From: a virus
Strand: one strand, 5' to 3'
IMG/VR virus record: IMGVR_UViG_3300044712_002165
Coordinates: 1 to 64,000 of that record
Length of the DNA stretch: 64,000 bases
Shown: positions 4,035 to 37,445 of the stretch, piece by piece
How the letters are laid out: every line of letters starts with the position of its first letter
How positions within the stretch are numbered: position 1 is the first letter of the stretch
Translations under genes and position numbers: made by a program
Notes under the pieces: generated by a model
The model's input: the letters and a program-made list of their open reading frames with translations, nothing else
Databases searched by the model: none
What the model was told of the DNA's origin: nothing

Positions 4035-4118
4035 GCCAGCGTGGTTTGCCCGGAATAGCAGACGGGCCTGCTTCAGAGGCAGTGAGCCTTGGGAGTGCAA
4101 TTCTCCCCGCTGGCACCA
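4035..4118 (+). tRNA. tRNA-Leu(CAG), non-canonical fold
   Basis: Acceptor gccagcg/cgctggc, A73, CCA; GGTT insert before the D arm pairs with AGCC in the variable region. Confidence 0.85.
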
Positions 4119-4130
4119 GTTCTTATGAAC

Positions 4131-4415
4131 ATGAAGCGTCGTACGTTCCTCTCACGACTTGTCGGCAGTGCGATCCTTGGCCGGTTTCTGCCCAAGGTCC
4201 TGGCCAAAGCGCCGGCCGCAGTCGTGGCACAGACGACGACGGCCAACGCACAGGCGTTCAGCGCGTGGGTTTTCCCGGTGATCCGGAACATGTCGCCAAG
4301 TGACGTGCTCACGGACCTGGTCAGCGTTCAACCGATGACGGCTCCGAGCGGCAACGTCATGTACCTCGATTTCAAGACGGACTCGAAGCCGGACCCGAAC
4401 GGTTGCCTTTTGTAA
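4131..4415 (+). CDS. Twin-arginine-leader mini-protein carrying a major capsid protein segment (QPM region)
   Basis: MKRRTFL leader; 18/35 identity to residues ~97-131 of the capsid protein at 35982. Confidence 0.8.
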   Translation: MKRRTFLSRLVGSAILGRFLPKVLAKAPAAVVAQTTTANAQAFSAWVFPVIRNMSPSDVLTDLVSVQPMTAPSGNVMYLDFKTDSKPDPNGCLL

Positions 4416-4419
4416 ACAA

Positions 4420-4680
4420 ATGAAACGTCGAAAATTCATCGCAGCTCTGGTTGGTGCTCCGGCTTTCCTCAAGGCGGCAGGAAGGCTGCGCGCAGCGCCG
4501 CCGCGTGTAATCGAGATGAAGCTCGTCAGTGCGCCTGTGGTTGCACAAGCGCGCAAGCTGAAGGCGATGTGGACGTGCGAGCTTGAACAGGACCTCAACG
4601 CCATGTACAACATTGAGGTCGAAGACATCCTCAAGAAAGCGCTTGATGGACATTTTGCCAGCGTGGTTAAGCCCGAATAG
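4420..4680 (+). CDS. Twin-arginine-leader mini-protein carrying a second capsid protein segment
   Basis: MKRRKFI leader; 24/44 identity to capsid residues ~257-300. Confidence 0.8.
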   Translation: MKRRKFIAALVGAPAFLKAAGRLRAAPPRVIEMKLVSAPVVAQARKLKAMWTCELEQDLNAMYNIEVEDILKKALDGHFASVVKPE

Positions 4681-4740
4681 CAGAGGGTTCAGTTCGAGAG
4701 ACTGAGAGCCTTAGGGGTGCAAGTCCCTTCGCTGGCACCA
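4657..4740 (+). tRNA. tRNA-Leu(GAG), non-canonical fold
   Basis: Same architecture as Leu(CAG); loop TC-GAG-AG; CCA. Confidence 0.82.
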
Positions 4741-4752
4741 ATTCTTAAAGAC

Positions 4753-5232
4753 GTGAGAGTGCTTGGTCCTTACCTCTGGCGCACAGGTGTAAACGCTGGT
4801 CGGCGCTACGTTCAGATTGTATACGCCGATGGGCGAAAAACAACGATGACGTGGGCGCGCTTTCAGCTTCGGAATCGCGTTAAAAAGGATGACTGCGTTC
4901 ATCACGTTGACGGCGATAAATCGAACGATAGCGCCTCAAATTACGCGATTGAATCGCGAAAGGAGCACGGGCGTATACACGCTAAGATTGAGTGCGGCGT
5001 TGAGATCGCTTGCGTTTGGTGTGGAAAAGTGTGCGTTAAAAGAGCACAAAAGTTAGACCATAACTCAAAGCAAGGAAAAGCAGGTCCGTTTTGCGGTAAA
5101 CGTTGCGTTGGCCTGTATAGTGAGTACGTCAGGCGCGGAGGAAACAGGTTGGCTGTTCAGCCTAGACGCCCTGTCGAAAGCAGAATCTACGGGCGAGTGG
5201 TTCACGGGGAACAGCAGACCCGACCGGCCTAG
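4753..5232 (+). CDS. HNH homing endonuclease
   Basis: VHHVDGDKSND..N motif, C-terminal CxxC...FCGxxC; stop is the TAG anticodon of the next tRNA. Confidence 0.85.
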   Translation: MRVLGPYLWRTGVNAGRRYVQIVYADGRKTTMTWARFQLRNRVKKDDCVHHVDGDKSNDSASNYAIESRKEHGRIHAKIECGVEIACVWCGKVCVKRAQKLDHNSKQGKAGPFCGKRCVGLYSEYVRRGGNRLAVQPRRPVESRIYGRVVHGEQQTRPA

Positions 5233-5274
5233 ACCCGGATAGCCTTGGAGGTGCAATTCCTCTCTCGCCCACCA
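5191..5274 (+). tRNA. tRNA-Leu(UAG), non-canonical fold
   Basis: Acceptor gggcgag/ctcgccc, GGTT/AGCC extra helix, CCA. Confidence 0.82.
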
Positions 5275-5292
5275 TTTTCGGGTATCTAATCC

Positions 5293-5940
5293 GTGCGTGT
5301 CATCACCTGCGTCAGCGTTGCGCTCACAACGCACTGCAACCTGGCCTGTCCAGACTGTTGCTGCGATATTCCGCGGCGCGGCGGAGGCACTCCGGTCGCC
5401 TGGGAGTATCTGGAGCTGGCAGCACAGCACTTGCGCGGCACGCCGAGGATCAATCTGACCGGTGGCGAGCCGACAACGCATCCACACTTCGATGAGTGGA
5501 GCCCGCGTTTTCGCGATCTGTTTCAGTGCTCGAAGCTGACCGTGGAGACGAATGGAATTTTGTCTACGAAACACGTGGACGCTCTGAGGTGCTACGATAC
5601 TGTATACGTTACGCACTACACGCCCGACACGTTCAAGGACGCGCCTTCGTACTACAGGGTGGACAACTCCAGGCAAATTGAAATTCTGCGCGAGGCGCTC
5701 GGCGACCGGCTCTACGTCAAGCCGTACATGTACCACCAGCCCAGACGCGAGCAGCGTGGTACCAAGCCTTGCGCCGCGGCCTTTTCGGAGACGGTGGCCT
5801 TCTGGAACGGCAAGCTGTTTCCGTGCTGCCTGGCTGACGGTGTTCCGAATGCGGTCGGCATTCCCTTGACGGACGATTGGCGAACGCGCATACACGAAGT
5901 GCAGCCTCCATGCGCGACCTGTTTTTTCGCAGTTCCATAG
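5293..5940 (+). CDS. Radical SAM protein with C-terminal Cys-rich (SPASM-like) region
   Basis: CNLACPDC, TGGEP, ETNG, PCC...CATC. Confidence 0.9.
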   Translation: MRVITCVSVALTTHCNLACPDCCCDIPRRGGGTPVAWEYLELAAQHLRGTPRINLTGGEPTTHPHFDEWSPRFRDLFQCSKLTVETNGILSTKHVDALRCYDTVYVTHYTPDTFKDAPSYYRVDNSRQIEILREALGDRLYVKPYMYHQPRREQRGTKPCAAAFSETVAFWNGKLFPCCLADGVPNAVGIPLTDDWRTRIHEVQPPCATCFFAVP

Positions 5941-6023
5941 CCCGTGTGGGTTGACAGCGAATACAAGAGCACTGGCACTTAAAAGCCGGACCTTTGCAGG
6001 TGGAAGTCCTGCCACGGGCACCA
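5940..6023 (+). tRNA. tRNA-Leu(UAA), non-canonical fold
   Basis: Acceptor gcccgtg/cacgggc, GGGT/ACCT extra helix, anticodon loop has 8 nt or a bulged A, CCA. Confidence 0.75.
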
Positions 6024-6027
6024 ATTT

Positions 6028-6111
6028 CGCGGCGTGGTTTACCCGGAATAGCAGACGGGGCGGTTTCAAAAACCGACAGCCTTGGAGGTGCAATTCCTCT
6101 CGCCGCGACCA
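6028..6111 (+). tRNA. tRNA-Leu(CAA), non-canonical fold
   Basis: Acceptor cgcggcg/cgccgcg, GGTT/AGCC extra helix, CCA. Confidence 0.85.
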
Positions 6112-7174: not shown

Positions 7175-7595
7175 GGGGGTGTACTGGTATCGATCTGTGT
7201 AAACAGATCGGTTGCTGCGTGCCGAGGATGATCGTTGGCCTCGTAAAATCTGCGATCAAAACATCAACTGCCAACAGGCTGAGTGATGAGTCGGTCCTCG
7301 CGGAAGCGGAAGCCATCCTGGCCAACCCGGATGCTTTCCTCCCCGCGGAGGTCGAAGCCGTGGCCTAACAAGGTCACCCGGTTGCCTGTAGACGCCTGCT
7401 AAGCAGGGTCAACCGTCATCAGCAGGATCGTGGCGCTTCGAGCAGTGTCGAAGCTCCGGCAGCTGGGTCAAGCTGCACCACAGGCTCTGCGCGATTTTGC
7501 TGATTCAGCGCAGCCTGGACTCAAATCAGCTATGCACGTAGACGCGGCCGGTTGTAGACGCAGAGACGCGGGTTCAACTCCCGCCACCTCCACCA
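7175..7595 (+). ncRNA. ssrA: tmRNA
   Basis: 5' GGGGGTG with G3:U70, 3' T arm plus CACCTCCACCA; tag frame 7270-7368 ANRLSDESVLAEAEAILANPDAFLPAEVEAVA*. Confidence 0.92.
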
Positions 7596-8264: not shown

Positions 8265-8408
8265 GTTGGTGGTCCGAACGTGTTGCTTATCATCGGTACC
8301 GCGGGTCGCAGGTTCAAATCCTGCCGTCTCGGCTTTCGATCCGAGGCGTAGCTCAGCCTGGTTAGAGCAGCGGTCAGCATTTGCGACGCGATCCACTTGA
8401 TCACCGAC
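8265..8408 (+). ncRNA. yrlA: YrlA-type Y RNA with permuted tRNA-like domain
   Basis: GGTCCGA...CTTGATC helix; T arm, then closed acceptor hairpin, then D arm; directly upstream of Ro60. Confidence 0.88.
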
Positions 8409-8531
8409 TTCCTTTTCGTCCCCCTGGGTCGAAAGCGTTCGAGCCGCTCCCTTGCCTGAACGCGATACCCAAGAACGGCCGATGAGCACGGCCGGCGAAA
8501 GCGTTTGGGGAGTGCGCGTGCTCGTCCACAG

Positions 8532-10214
8532 ATGGCAAAGATCAGCACTGCCTCGTTTCACCGTCGGCGTTCCATTCCCGTCACTGAGCCCATCCCAGGG
8601 CGCAAGGAAATGGTGCCGAACTCCACTGGTGGCTACGCCTGGAAGGTCACCGAGTGGGATCAGCTCGACCGCTTCCTGATCCTGGGCGTCACTGGCGGCA
8701 CCTACTACATCGGCGAGCGCAAGCTCACCGATGACAACGCGGCTGCCGTCAAGGCGTGCATCCAGCTGGATGCCGGCCGTGTTGTTGACCGCGTCGTCGA
8801 GGTCTCCGTCGGAGGTCTCGCGCTCCGCAACGATCCGGCCATCTTCGCGCTCGCGCTCGTCGCTGCCAGCAACGACGCCGAGGCCAAGGCCAAGGTCGCT
8901 GCTGCGCTCCCGCAGGTCTGCCGCACCGGTACGCACCTGCTGCACTACGGCGATTACGTCAACGCTTTGCGCGGCTGGGGTCCCTCGGTCCGCAAGAGCG
9001 TCGCGTCCTGGTACACCGGCCGTGAGGCCGACAACCTGGCGTTCCAGGTCGGCAAGTATCAGAGCCGCGACAACTGGTCGCATCGCGACTTGCTGCGTCT
9101 CACGCACCCGAAGGCTCCGAACGAGGCCACCGACGCGGTTTTCCGGTGGATCGTTGGCGGCATGGAGGCTGTCAACGGCCGGACCGTGAAGCGCAAGGAC
9201 GGCAGCTCGGTCAAGTACCCGTCGCTGCGCGAGCACCTGCCTCGGTTCCTGGCTGCCATGGAAGAGGTCAAGGCAGCCAAGAAGGCCAAGGATGTGGTTC
9301 GGCTCATCACCGAGCACAACCTGCCTCGCGAGGTCATTCCGACCGAGTGGCTCAATGAGGTCGAGGTCTGGGAGGCGCTTCTCCAGAAGATGCCGCTCAC
9401 GGCCATGATCCGCAACCTGGGCAAGATGACCTCCATCGGCCTGGTTCGCCCGCTCTCCGCGGGCGCACGGCTCGTCAAGGAGCGCCTTGGCAACAAGGAC
9501 TACCTCCGGAAGAGCCGCATTCACCCAATCAGCGTCCTCGTGGCTGCGCGGACCTACGCGCAGGGCAAGGGCGTCAAGGGCAGCCTGTCCTGGAGCCCTG
9601 TGCCCGCCGTCCAGACGGCGCTGGATGAGGCGTTCTACGCCACGTTCGGCAACGTCCGGAAGATCGGCAAGCCGGTTCTGATCGCGCTCGACGTGTCCGG
9701 TTCCATGGGTTCGTCCGCGGCCGGTACGGTCCTGCGCGCCTGCGAGGCGACGGCAGCAATGTCGCTCGTCTGGCTGAACACGGAGCCCGAGGTTCACGTG
9801 TTCGGTTTCGGAAGTACGTTCCGCGAACTCGGCATCCGCAAGGGCATGACCCTGGAGGCTGCGTGCCAGAAGGCCGTGCAGGCGAACTTCGGTTCGACCA
9901 ACATCGGTCTGGCGGTTGAGTACGCGGAGCAGCACAAGATCGATGTCGGCGGCTTCATCGTCATGACCGACAACGAGGGCAACACGGGTGAGCAGCCCGC
10001 AAAGGTGATGGAGCGCTACCGCAAGGCCCGCGTTCCTGACGCTCGCCTCGTGATGGCTGCCACGTCAGCCAATCAGTATCGGGCAAGCGACCCGAACGAC
10101 AAGTGGAGCCTGGATGTGGCGGGTTTCGATCCGTCAGTCCCCACGGTCGTCAACAACTTCATCCGCGGCAGCGCGGGCGAGGAAACTGTTGACGAGCCCG
10201 AGTCGGAGGAGTAA
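8532..10214 (+). CDS. rsr: Ro60/TROVE-domain RNA-binding protein with vWA domain
   Basis: NSTGGY, LDRFLILG..GGTYY, KYQSR..WSHRDLLRL.H, MPLTAMIRNLG, DVSGSM, TDNE, GFD. Confidence 0.95.
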   Translation: MAKISTASFHRRRSIPVTEPIPGRKEMVPNSTGGYAWKVTEWDQLDRFLILGVTGGTYYIGERKLTDDNAAAVKACIQLDAGRVVDRVVEVSVGGLALRNDPAIFALALVAASNDAEAKAKVAAALPQVCRTGTHLLHYGDYVNALRGWGPSVRKSVASWYTGREADNLAFQVGKYQSRDNWSHRDLLRLTHPKAPNEATDAVFRWIVGGMEAVNGRTVKRKDGSSVKYPSLREHLPRFLAAMEEVKAAKKAKDVVRLITEHNLPREVIPTEWLNEVEVWEALLQKMPLTAMIRNLGKMTSIGLVRPLSAGARLVKERLGNKDYLRKSRIHPISVLVAARTYAQGKGVKGSLSWSPVPAVQTALDEAFYATFGNVRKIGKPVLIALDVSGSMGSSAAGTVLRACEATAAMSLVWLNTEPEVHVFGFGSTFRELGIRKGMTLEAACQKAVQANFGSTNIGLAVEYAEQHKIDVGGFIVMTDNEGNTGEQPAKVMERYRKARVPDARLVMAATSANQYRASDPNDKWSLDVAGFDPSVPTVVNNFIRGSAGEETVDEPESEE

Positions 10215-12063: not shown

Positions 12064-12636
12064 ATGACTGTAGCCGCATTACTCAAGCAGCCCGTGCTGA
12101 TCCTGAACAGGAACTGGCAGGCTATCGAGGAAACCACCGTCGAGACGGCGCTGGGTGACGTGTTCCGTGGCCAGAAGCGTGCCATCGACACCGACACCAT
12201 GCAGGCCATGACCTGGGACGAGTGGGCGCGGCTACCGGTTCGTGCCAACGACGAGTCCATCAGCACGACCAAGGGTCGCGTGCGCGTGCCCCGTGTGATC
12301 GTCGCAGCCTGGGCCGGCATGCCCCGCAAGCGGCCGAAGAAGAACGGCCGAGGCGTAGCTGCCAGGGACAAGTTCATCTGCGCCTACACCGGCAAGTTCG
12401 CACCCGACGGAAACGTAGACCACGTGATCCCGTTGGGTCAGGGCGGCTCCGGCGACTGGGAAAACCTGGTCTGGTCGGACCGGGAGATCAACCACCGAAA
12501 GGGCAACCGTACACCGGAACAGGCAGGCTTACGCCTACTGCGCAAACCGTTTACGCCAACGGAACTGCCTGCTGTCGCTTTGATCGACCCGAAGCACCCG
12601 ACCTGGGAACACTTCTGCGTCGTGAAAAAGCGTTGA
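12064..12636 (+). CDS. HNH endonuclease (McrA-like)
   Basis: LILNRNW, RDKFICAYTG, VDHVIP..GG..WENLV...N..KGNRTP. Confidence 0.9.
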   Translation: MTVAALLKQPVLILNRNWQAIEETTVETALGDVFRGQKRAIDTDTMQAMTWDEWARLPVRANDESISTTKGRVRVPRVIVAAWAGMPRKRPKKNGRGVAARDKFICAYTGKFAPDGNVDHVIPLGQGGSGDWENLVWSDREINHRKGNRTPEQAGLRLLRKPFTPTELPAVALIDPKHPTWEHFCVVKKR

Positions 12637-35981: not shown

Positions 35982-37445
35982 ATGGTTATTCTGCACGAAA
36001 CAGGACGGCCGATGCTGGCGAGTGAAGGCGGTCACATCAACCGCTTCACCGACATCCTCGAATGGGGTTACCGCCTGGCTGAGACGCCGGTCGGCACCCC
36101 CGAAAAGAACCCCCGCGGTCTCTGGGAAGCCAGGGGCTGGAAGGAGTTCGTCCAACACATGCCCGAGCACAAGCGCCCCATCGCGGCGATCATGCTCGAA
36201 AACTGCCGTTCCCGCTGGGGCCGGCTGGACGAAGTTACCCGGACCACAAGTCTCGGTACCTTTGATAAGTGGATCTTCCCGGTGATTGCGAACATGTCCG
36301 AGAACGACGTGATCGACCAGCTCGTCGCCATCCAGCCGATGGCCGGTCCGGTCAGTCAGATCGTTTACATGGACATCGTCACCGGACGCCGGAAGGGCCG
36401 CACGCCCGCTGGCGCGCCGATGTGGCGTGCGCTCCAGGGCGCGGTTGACCGCGACGACGACGCCGACGAGCTGATCCAGGACGAGACCGGCACCTCGAAC
36501 GGTTCCGGCGTGATCGTGCTGGAATGGACTCCGATTCGCGCCGGCACGCTGTCCGGCACCGTCGGCTCCATCTCGGTGGCCGACGACGGCAACGGCAACA
36601 TCATCAACGTGGCGTCCAACGCTACCGTCGGTACCGTCGTGTACCAGGGCACGGGCGCGGGCACGATCACCATCGCGTCGCAGGCGAACGCGAGCTACAC
36701 GCTCACCTACGCCTACAACTCGGAAGGCAACCTGGCGATCCAGGACTACGAGATGAAGCTCTCATCGACGCCGGTTACGGCGAAGGTGATGAAGCTGAAG
36801 ACCCTCTGGTCCGAGGAAGCCGACCAGAACCTCCAGGCGATGTACAACATCAAGGCCGAGAGCGTCCTGCTCAACGCCCTGACCAACGCGCTCCAGTACC
36901 AGAAGCACCGCCAGGTGATCTTCGATCTGCGCGCCAAGGCTGACGCCGGCTTCGTCGTCTGGGACGCCATCGCTCCGGCGAACGTCAACTACCAGACGCA
37001 CAAGTTCTCGATCATCGACGCGTTCGAGACCGCCTCGAACTTCATCTTCGGTGCCACGAACATGGTCGCCGGCAACTGGGTGCTCCTGGGTCTCCAGGCT
37101 GCCACCGTGGTGGCCACGCTGCCTCAGTTCGTGCCGAAGAACTCCCGGGTCCAGATGCAGGGCATCACCTACATCGGTGATCTTGGAAATAAGAAAATCT
37201 TCTCGGACCCGCACTATCCGAACAACGAGTTCCTCGTCGGCCACAAGGGCGACCAGTTCCTCACGACCGGGTACGTTCTGGCGGAATATCAAAAATTGTA
37301 TACAACGCCCGACGTTGTTCTCCCGGACTTCATCCACCAGCGCGGCTTCGCCACGAGCTTCGCTCGGAAGATGATCAACTCGAAGATGTTCTGCCGCGGA
37401 TTGGTTCAGAACTCTCCGACGGCGTTCGGCCAGACCATCGGCTAA
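35982..37445 (+). CDS. Major capsid protein (T4 gp23-like)
   Basis: QPMAGP, KLK..WS.EA.Q.L.A, GN, LVGHKG...GYVLA.Y; directly after protease. Confidence 0.95.
   Translation: MVILHETGRPMLASEGGHINRFTDILEWGYRLAETPVGTPEKNPRGLWEARGWKEFVQHMPEHKRPIAAIMLENCRSRWGRLDEVTRTTSLGTFDKWIFPVIANMSENDVIDQLVAIQPMAGPVSQIVYMDIVTGRRKGRTPAGAPMWRALQGAVDRDDDADELIQDETGTSNGSGVIVLEWTPIRAGTLSGTVGSISVADDGNGNIINVASNATVGTVVYQGTGAGTITIASQANASYTLTYAYNSEGNLAIQDYEMKLSSTPVTAKVMKLKTLWSEEADQNLQAMYNIKAESVLLNALTNALQYQKHRQVIFDLRAKADAGFVVWDAIAPANVNYQTHKFSIIDAFETASNFIFGATNMVAGNWVLLGLQAATVVATLPQFVPKNSRVQMQGITYIGDLGNKKIFSDPHYPNNEFLVGHKGDQFLTTGYVLAEYQKLYTTPDVVLPDFIHQRGFATSFARKMINSKMFCRGLVQNSPTAFGQTIG

Follow-up and report, generated by a model that had tools for sequence, protein, structure and literature searches.

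Five tRNA-Leu genes in a jumbo-phage tRNA array

The window analysed here, by which we mean the whole stretch of 64 kilobases (kb), belongs to a 75-kb virus record in IMG/VR (IMGVR_UViG_3300044712_002165) that is judged 33% complete. Between positions 4035 and 6111 it carries five leucine tRNA (tRNA-Leu) genes that share an extra helix, formed between the segment that connects the acceptor stem to the D arm and the variable region that precedes the T arm. Proteins encoded in the window include a T4-type prohead protease, a full-length Gp23-type capsid protein and a tail sheath. The source is an uncultured T4-like jumbo phage, and the DNA sequencing runs that hold the window are rhizosphere metagenomes. 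The tRNA-Leu genes are part of a mobile tRNA array, in which they, 13 tRNAs called by ARAGORN and a transfer-messenger RNA (tmRNA) lie within 12 kb.

All five genes are on the plus strand and 84 nucleotides (nt) long. Copy 1, tRNA-Leu(CAG), occupies 4035-4118; the 5' strand of its extra helix, GGUU, lies at 4043-4046 (positions 9-12 of the tRNA), and the covarying partner AGCC lies at 4085-4088, directly before UU and the T arm. This gene encodes A73 and CCA and scores 97.2 bits with model R1. Copy 2, tRNA-Leu(GAG), at 4657-4740 (95.8 bits), and copy 3, tRNA-Leu(UAG), at 5191-5274 (96.7 bits), both have C33 and repeat the same helix strands, with GGUU at 4665-4668 and AGCC at 4707-4710 in the former, and GGUU at 5199-5202 and AGCC at 5241-5244 in the latter. 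Copy 4, tRNA-Leu(UAA), at 5940-6023, belongs to a more variable subgroup (55.1 bits with R1) and has GGGU at 5948-5951 and ACCU at 5990-5993. Copy 5, tRNA-Leu(CAA), at 6028-6111, scores highest of the five (98.6 bits) and again has GGUU (6036-6039) and AGCC (6078-6081).

The five genes follow one layout: a 7-base-pair (bp) acceptor stem, U8, a 4-nt strand, 2 nt, the D arm, the anticodon arm, 1 nt, the complementary 4-nt strand, UU and the T arm. The T stem has 5 bp, the T loop reads UGCAAKU (UGGAAGU in copy 4), and the D loop reads GAAYAGCAGA across the five window copies. This layout fits neither class of tRNA. Where class II tRNAs have a variable-arm hairpin of at least 10 nt, only 7 nt (N-AGCC-UU) separate the anticodon and T arms; where they have a 2-nt connector (U8, N9), 7 nt (U, four paired, two free) precede the D stem; and where they have nucleotide 26, 0 nt lie between the D and anticodon stems. 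Class I tRNAs combine an unpaired variable loop of 4-5 nt with a 2-nt connector, and here a 7-nt variable region has 4 nt paired to a 7-nt connector. What all five copies do share with class II tRNA-Leu is the 7-bp acceptor stem with A73 and a 3' CCA.

Direct reading of the sequence thus bears out most of what a first-pass annotation had described at this locus: five tRNA-Leu genes at these places, a T-GGTT-NN connector after the acceptor stem and N-AGCC-TT before the T arm in the CAG, GAG, UAG and CAA copies, GGGT and ACCT at the same offsets in the UAA copy (positions 9-12, and the four nucleotides before TT and the T arm), no long variable arm in any copy, and A73 with an encoded CCA in all of them. 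Its statement that the acceptor stems differ between copies holds for three of the genes and fails for copies 1 and 2, whose stems are identical (GCCAGCG).

Standard tools overlook these genes. ARAGORN reports 13 tRNAs elsewhere in the window and misses all five tRNA-Leu genes, and the Rfam family RF00005 gives no match to any of the five even at E≤1 (model threshold 29 bits); the Rfam tRNA model finds 14 tRNAs and one tmRNA in the first 14 kb of the window. Among relatives, ARAGORN at times calls a shortened piece of 76-77 nt from within an extra-helix gene. The pattern seen in the five genes is far beyond chance, and the same layout recurs in 180 distinct sequences with compensatory changes.

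Covariation supports the extra helix

To collect relatives, we ran three search patterns against public collections (D loop plus T loop plus CCA; UAA anticodon loop plus T loop plus ACCA; and a looser D-loop/T-arm pattern), and we scanned whole phage records with a covariance model derived from the first 12 sequences. We kept elements of 82-88 nt with paired acceptor and T stems, U8, UU before the T stem, and an anticodon stem-loop ending no more than 2 nt from the 3' strand. The helix letters were left free in the patterns, and helix pairing was not used in selecting relatives. The search gave 183 distinct sequences; removing four obvious outsiders and adding the window's UAA copy left a set of 180. 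True members are 83-87 nt long, with the variation located in the D loop, and their anticodons are all leucine anticodons (CAA, CAG, UAA, GAG, UAG or AAG). The relatives include three extra-helix tRNA-Leu genes on a single 202.7-kb phage record (G004).

MAFFT alignments of these sequences (A3 and A4) place gaps in the 5' helix strand, which makes them unfit for column counts, and we instead used fixed offsets from both ends, comparing positions 9-12 with the four bases that precede UU and the T arm. Read in this way, 97.6% of the 720 helix cells in the 180 sequences hold standard pairs. The helix occurs in 34 distinct variants, 21 of them fully paired. Across the distinct variants the pairing fraction is 0.90 in register, compared with 66% when the 3' strands are dealt at random (none of 2000 shuffles reaches the observed value) and at most 0.81 in any slid register. 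Fully paired variants include GGUU/AGCC, GGCU/AGCC, GGAU/AUCC, GGAC/GUCC, GAAC/GUUC, GGGU/ACCU and GGUC/GACU, and further GACC/GGUU, GCCC/GGGU, GAUU/AAUU, GAGU/ACUU, GUCC/GGAU, GGCC/GGCC and GGGG/CCCC. The first pair always has G on its 5' side, opposite C or U, and at the third pair U·G is swapped four times for C·A, an isosteric wobble. The helix is 4 bp long in every member, and U8, the first G and UU are invariant.

As an independent check by pair counting, we examined A5, in which MAFFT aligned 29 sequences from the more variable subgroup, with copy 4 as the first row. In A5, 93.9% of the helix cells are paired and three of the four pairs change on both sides, with counts of GC 13, AU 11, UA 3 and CG 1 at one pair, CG 12, GC 12, AU 2 and UA 2 at another, and CG 14, UA 6, GC 1 and UG 1 at the third. 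The whole-structure covariation score is 0.857, against 0.10-0.15 for slid partners, and none of 500 shuffles scores as high. Covariation in the extra helix equals that of the acceptor, anticodon and T stems, and compensatory change is found in all five helices, the anticodon stem included. RNAalifold, given the alignment alone, also predicts the extra helix.

From this covariation among homologues, the extra helix is almost certainly real, and the tRNA shape is clearly maintained by evolution. The pairing of GGUU with AGCC that the first-pass annotation had put forward is thus not refuted by a lack of covariation in homologues, one of the outcomes that it had named as counting against it, and the fold that it took to be new is indeed absent from tRNA finders, Rfam and the literature searched.

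Elsewhere in the molecule, the acceptor pairs are 97-100% paired across the relatives, and A73 and CCA are invariant. The five window anticodons all belong to leucine, and the usual 7-nt anticodon loop with U33 is altered in copies 2 and 3 by C33, seen as claimed in the loops UCGAGAG and CCUAGAC, and in copy 4 by an eighth nucleotide. C33 is the rule among GAG relatives (25 of 28, in the loop UCGAGAR) and occurs in only 2 of 27 UAG members. It is also present in a 77-nt class-I-like GAG tRNA of a chromosomal array.

Predicted architecture of the tRNA core

Among the 115 gap-free members of 84 nt, mutual information identifies one further pair, in which the third base past GGUU varies together with the base preceding the anticodon stem (columns 15 and 32; 0.99 bit) as CG, GC, AU, UA, GU and some C·A. 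This covariation implies a D stem of 4 bp, a 2-nt linker after the 5' strand of the extra helix and no nucleotide between the D and anticodon stems, and it agrees with the initial parse of 2 nt after GGTT and 1 nt before AGCC. In the resulting secondary structure, two three-way junctions replace the usual four-way junction. The extra helix encloses the D and anticodon arms, with one junction joining the acceptor stem, the helix and the T arm (linkers of 1, 2 and 0 nt) and the other joining the helix, the D arm and the anticodon arm (linkers of 2, 0 and 1 nt).

We infer that the helix lies alongside the D stem and that the tRNA keeps its L shape. In this model, the strands that normally line the groove of the D stem (8-9 and 44-48) would be zipped together beside the 4-bp D stem, so that the helix would span from the level of U8-A14 and A15-U48 to the junction of the D and anticodon arms. 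The acceptor-T stack, the D-anticodon stack and the elbow between the D and T loops would all be retained. Across the relatives, little or no variation is seen at U8, A14, A15, the U that precedes the T stem, U54, A58, C56 and one G of the D loop.

The elbow itself is altered in these tRNAs, with A in place of G18 and G55 in place of U55. The same combination of a U54-G55-C56-A-A T loop (in place of U-U-C) and a D-loop AGC (in place of GG) is seen in the window tRNAs at 611, 1388 and 2007, in the five tRNA-Leu copies and in many tRNAs of related arrays. It is also found in the class II tRNA-Leu and the tRNA-Tyr of a related phage, G189, while host tRNA-Leu has a normal UUCAAGU T loop. The altered elbow is common to a whole mobile tRNA lineage.

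Probable derivation from a class II arm and proposed charging by the host

Phage G189, a complete genome of 225 kb, belongs to the same capsid clade (70% identity) and carries a tRNA array of 36 genes. Five of these are tRNA-Leu genes with the same set of anticodons; they are of ordinary class II and are recognised by ARAGORN. Their variable-arm stems read GGUU-GAC-AGCC (GAG), GGUU-GAAA-AACC (UAG), GGAU/AUCC (CAG) and GGUC/GGCC (CAA), the same letters as in the extra helix, which thus looks like the old arm stem. The simplest reading, and a likely one, is that the extra helix derives from the class II arm stem. The tRNAs of the window would then descend from ordinary long-armed class II tRNA-Leu by loss of the arm hairpin, with the 3' strand of the arm staying just before U47-U48 and the 5' strand now supplied right after U8.

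Other tRNAs of the same phages have kept their arms. In carrier G003 (96% complete), the tRNA-Tyr and two tRNA-Ser genes retain long variable arms, and all Leu genes are of the extra-helix type. Seryl-tRNA synthetase and bacterial tyrosyl-tRNA synthetase use the variable arm. A rearrangement restricted to Leu fits this use of the arm, and it also fits the reported dispensability of the arm stem for bacterial leucylation (PMC6614811).

No phage leucyl-tRNA synthetase (LeuRS) was found in G000, G003, G004, G014 or G016, and four carriers that are 94-100% complete hold no class Ia synthetase; if the extra-helix tRNAs are used, the host LeuRS must therefore charge them. In E. coli, the leucine identity set includes A14 (with U8), A15-U48, G18G19/U55C56 and U54-A58 (PMC6614811). 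The extra-helix tRNAs keep A73, U8-A14, A15-U48, U54-A58, C56 and the D-loop G of such a set, and G18 and U55 are changed. We infer from these retained features that the host LeuRS would charge the tRNAs through A73, U8-A14, A15-U48, U54-A58 and G19-C56, and the set would then supply all leucine codons during infection.

Distribution in phages and chromosomal islands

The phages closest to ours by capsid protein, G177, G178 and G179 (89-90% identity), carry extra-helix tRNA-Leu genes, as do G001 and G003 (81-82% identity); other members of the capsid clade have no tRNA array. No cultured carrier emerged from blastn searches of GenBank phages or PLSDB plasmids. In species-representative bacterial genomes the search pattern matched about 100 stretches, nearly all labelled Verrucomicrobiota, and about 60 of these hold true members; some of the Verrucomicrobiota-labelled matches lie on contigs of 0.5-0.9 Mb. 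Two Verrucomicrobiota genomes with extra-helix copies have ordinary class II tRNA-Leu genes scattered over the chromosome (D loop GAAUGGCAGA, T loop UUCAAGU, arm UCC-GAAA-GGA followed by UU), and both have their extra-helix copies within a dense tRNA array next to an integrase. One such chromosomal array (G026:C5:785000-824999, L360/L361) contains at least 17 tRNA genes, made up of 15 ARAGORN calls, one of them a shortened extra-helix gene, and two more extra-helix Leu genes. An RtcB RNA ligase is encoded inside this array, and its flanks carry a phage-type integrase, a PstI-type restriction endonuclease with an Eco57I-type methylase, an AbiEi-like gene and an IS110 transposase. Among 150 other Verrucomicrobiota genomes, drawn evenly from the phylum, none has a strong match.

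This distribution indicates that the fold belongs to the mobile tRNA arrays of Verrucomicrobiota-associated phages and islands, and Verrucomicrobiota is likely the host phylum of the window's phage.

Neighboring features of the arrays

Several other features lie among or near the tRNA-Leu genes, all on the plus strand of the window. Two small open reading frames (ORFs) between them, at 4125-4415 and 4420-4680, each encode an MKRRxF twin-arginine-like leader and, after it, a diverged copy, 45-50 residues long (42% and 55% identity), of part of the phage capsid protein encoded at 35982-37445. The copied pieces correspond to residues 86-137 and 257-300 of that protein, and both pass the Pfam Gp23 cut-off; the products might be decoy or trigger-like peptides. 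Other ORFs interleaved with tRNA genes encode a weak HNH-like protein (4717-5232), a radical-SAM protein (5293-5940) and an HNH endonuclease (12064-12636). Also present are the phage-encoded tmRNA at 7175-7595 (RF00023, 127 bits, full length) and a Ro60 homologue with TROVE and vWA domains at 8505-10214, which is preceded at 8300-8372 by a weak YrlA (Y RNA-like) match whose 32.6 bits fall below the family's 69-bit threshold.

ARAGORN also misses three tRNA-shaped elements on the same strand: a Cys(GCA)-like element at 1308-1380 with U73 and an odd D arm (28.6 bits with the tRNA-Sec model), a Thr(GGU)-like element at 1624-1698, and at 2103-2181 an acceptor-like stem around a long hairpin, with a CyVA-1 model score (34 bits) that is below threshold. 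In three related arrays, unusually long tRNA-Ile(UAU) calls of 92-93 nt occur at L336:1177-1268, L363:5981-6072 and L364:15550-15642.

Discussion

The identity set of these genes is largely invariant and compensatory change has occurred in all five helices, and a working set of leucine tRNAs is on that account the best reading of the locus. The genes probably encode functional tRNA-Leu. As a fuller explanation, we think it quite likely that they are the working Leu tRNAs (CAG, GAG, UAG, UAA and CAA) of a jumbo-phage array, derived from class II tRNA-Leu with a rewired helix.

A number of observations weigh against this reading, some bearing on the helix and others on function. The nearest-neighbor energy of the helix is only -0.1 to -0.7 kcal/mol in copies 1-3, and the minimum-free-energy folds of single sequences are not cloverleaves and favor other pairings, with z-scores of -0.5 to -2.1; energy models, however, speak neither for nor against the helix. 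The commonest variant, GGUU/AGCC, is nearly invariant, so that covariation comes mostly from the UAA-type and other subgroups. Copy 4 has an anticodon loop of 8 nt (ACUUAAAA) and is without one base of the 3' strand of the anticodon stem; its relatives L053, L064 and L067 are one base longer and have a 7-nt loop. The altered elbow could impair LeuRS, which reads this part of the tRNA, and charging by the host is not guaranteed in any case, as the E. coli enzyme is reported to charge only type II tRNA-Leu (PMC6614811). Finally, the sequencing runs listed as holding the window DNA include no RNA run. Short contigs from three wastewater runs that are guessed to be RNA, and may be DNA, cover 4709-4743, 4803-5262 and 5292-5475, including part of copy 3.

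Why such a fold arose is a separate question, for which defence evasion and drift under relaxed constraint are both plausible and equally possible. In the latter, the rearrangement would simply have been permitted: LeuRS ignores the arm stem, tRNAs on mobile elements are free to rearrange, and the helix would be just a stabilizing stand-in for lost core contacts, with no function of its own beyond that. We regard this as a real possibility, if one that falls short of probable. It is consistent with the report that leucylation does not need the long-arm stem and with the charging of a type I tRNA-Leu in Streptomyces coelicolor (PMC6614811), with the short class-I-like tRNAs bearing Leu anticodons and A73 that related arrays hold, and with the restriction of the change to Leu while Ser and Tyr tRNAs, whose synthetases use the arm, are unchanged. 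Yet helix length, register, U8, the first G and UU are extremely constrained over 180 sequences, a constancy that argues for a precise structural role, and the fold has spread over many phage contigs and islands.

In the anti-defence account, rewiring would remove the variable-arm hairpin, and in the GAG copies also U33, that host tRNA nucleases cut, and the phage Leu tRNAs would outlast the destroyed host ones; such an account is compatible with a working set of leucine tRNAs. Evasion of toxins or nucleases is plausible by analogy, since Septu and Retron-Eco7 cleave class II tRNA-Tyr within its variable arm and the tRNA-Tyr of phage T5 escapes by means of a different variable loop (PMC13096335), and since a retron HEPN nuclease cuts tRNA-Leu after U33 (bioRxiv 10.64898/2026.07.14.738597), the very position that is C in most GAG relatives. 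The genomic setting is also suggestive: the chromosomal island lies among restriction-modification and AbiEi genes with an RtcB RNA ligase inside the array, and the window also encodes a tmRNA and a Ro60 homologue. Against this, we know of no nuclease that cuts the variable arm of tRNA-Leu, and none was found in the literature searched; moreover, long arms persist on the tRNA-Tyr and tRNA-Ser of these phages, and the related phage G189 manages with ordinary class II tRNA-Leu. As the actual cause of the fold, we consider defence evasion a tentative proposal. The most far-reaching version, which we think unlikely, is that these tRNAs form a third structural class of elongator tRNA, with a core-connector helix that resolves the four-way junction, and that this class arose in Verrucomicrobiota-phage arrays specifically to present host nucleases with a tRNA-Leu lacking the loop of the variable arm (and, for GAG, U33) that is still accepted by the host LeuRS, EF-Tu and ribosome.

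There are two further readings. The genes could be tRNA look-alikes that do not decode (nuclease decoys or primers), or decaying pseudogenes, as might be suspected from their rejection by standard finders, from the 8-nt anticodon loop of copy 4 and from a relative (G003:200593-200676) that is without CCA and has mismatches in three stems. This reading is very improbable given the complete set of five Leu anticodons, in places that match those of the class II set in the related phage, the compensatory changes in every helix, and the invariance of A73 and CCA. That the fold is the native tRNA-Leu of Verrucomicrobiota, merely copied by the phage, has in its favor the roughly 60 true members among some 100 pattern matches, nearly all with that label and some on contigs of 0.5-0.9 Mb, but can be set aside given the class II tRNA-Leu that two such genomes keep, the location of their extra-helix copies in an integrase-side array and the lack of a strong match in 150 evenly drawn genomes of the phylum.

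Comparison with known tRNAs

The cloverleaf with its single four-way junction is among the most conserved of RNA architectures, and its accepted exceptions alter stem lengths or delete arms. In the tRNAs described here, by comparison, a whole isoacceptor family, distributed over many uncultured phages and islands, holds to another topology, and selection for it is clear. Should these tRNAs be charged and take part in decoding, then LeuRS, EF-Tu, RNase P, the CCA and modification enzymes and the ribosome would all tolerate a rebuilt tRNA core, which would also offer a natural scaffold for tRNA engineering. Phage tRNA censuses would then be incomplete, since ARAGORN and Rfam overlook every Leu tRNA of these phages. 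The fold further makes it testable whether defence systems that cut tRNAs lead phages to reshape the arms of their class II tRNAs.

Neither full-text literature searches nor a 2020 review of non-canonical tRNAs (PMC7609411) yielded a helix that joins the acceptor-D connector to the variable region. The natural departures from the cloverleaf that are known to function, including tRNA-Sec of the 8/5 or 9/4 type, tRNA-Pyl, allo-tRNAs and armless mitochondrial tRNAs (PMC7609411), have altered stem lengths or lost arms, and none pairs these two segments. Animal mitochondrial tRNA-Leu is likewise without a long arm, but it has an ordinary class I layout, its own synthetase and no extra helix. Dense mobile tRNA clusters much like the present one are known from phages, plasmids and islands, where a role as a backup for translation during stress or defence has been proposed for them (PMC5966550, PMC8421152); as far as text searches of these papers show, they do not report the fold. 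The T5 tRNA-Tyr (PMC13096335) is a class II tRNA of a phage and resembles our tRNAs in having a variable arm that differs from that of the host; it retains a hairpin arm and its nuclease resistance is demonstrated, whereas here the arm is rewired and resistance is a guess.

Bacterial tRNA-Leu is in general type II, as the first-pass annotation had stated, with an exception in S. coelicolor, whose type I tRNA-Leu(CAA) (PMC6614811) is the nearest published case. Like the extra-helix tRNAs, it is arm-less and coexists with class II tRNA-Leu, and it is charged by the cell's single LeuRS; unlike them, it folds as a plain class I cloverleaf, in which the variable loop has 5 nt and the connector the normal 2 nt, and has no extra helix. 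With bacterial class II tRNA-Leu, as represented by E. coli, phage G189 and the Verrucomicrobiota genome G026, the new tRNAs have in common a length of about 84 nt, the 7-bp acceptor stem, A73-CCA, Leu anticodons, U8, A14, A15 and UU before the T stem, and the D loops are close (GAAY-AGC-AGA here, GAAU-GGC-AGA in the host). They differ from it in having no arm hairpin, 7 rather than 2 nt between the acceptor and D stems, no nucleotide 26, the 5' strand of the arm after U8, two three-way junctions and G55 in the T loop.

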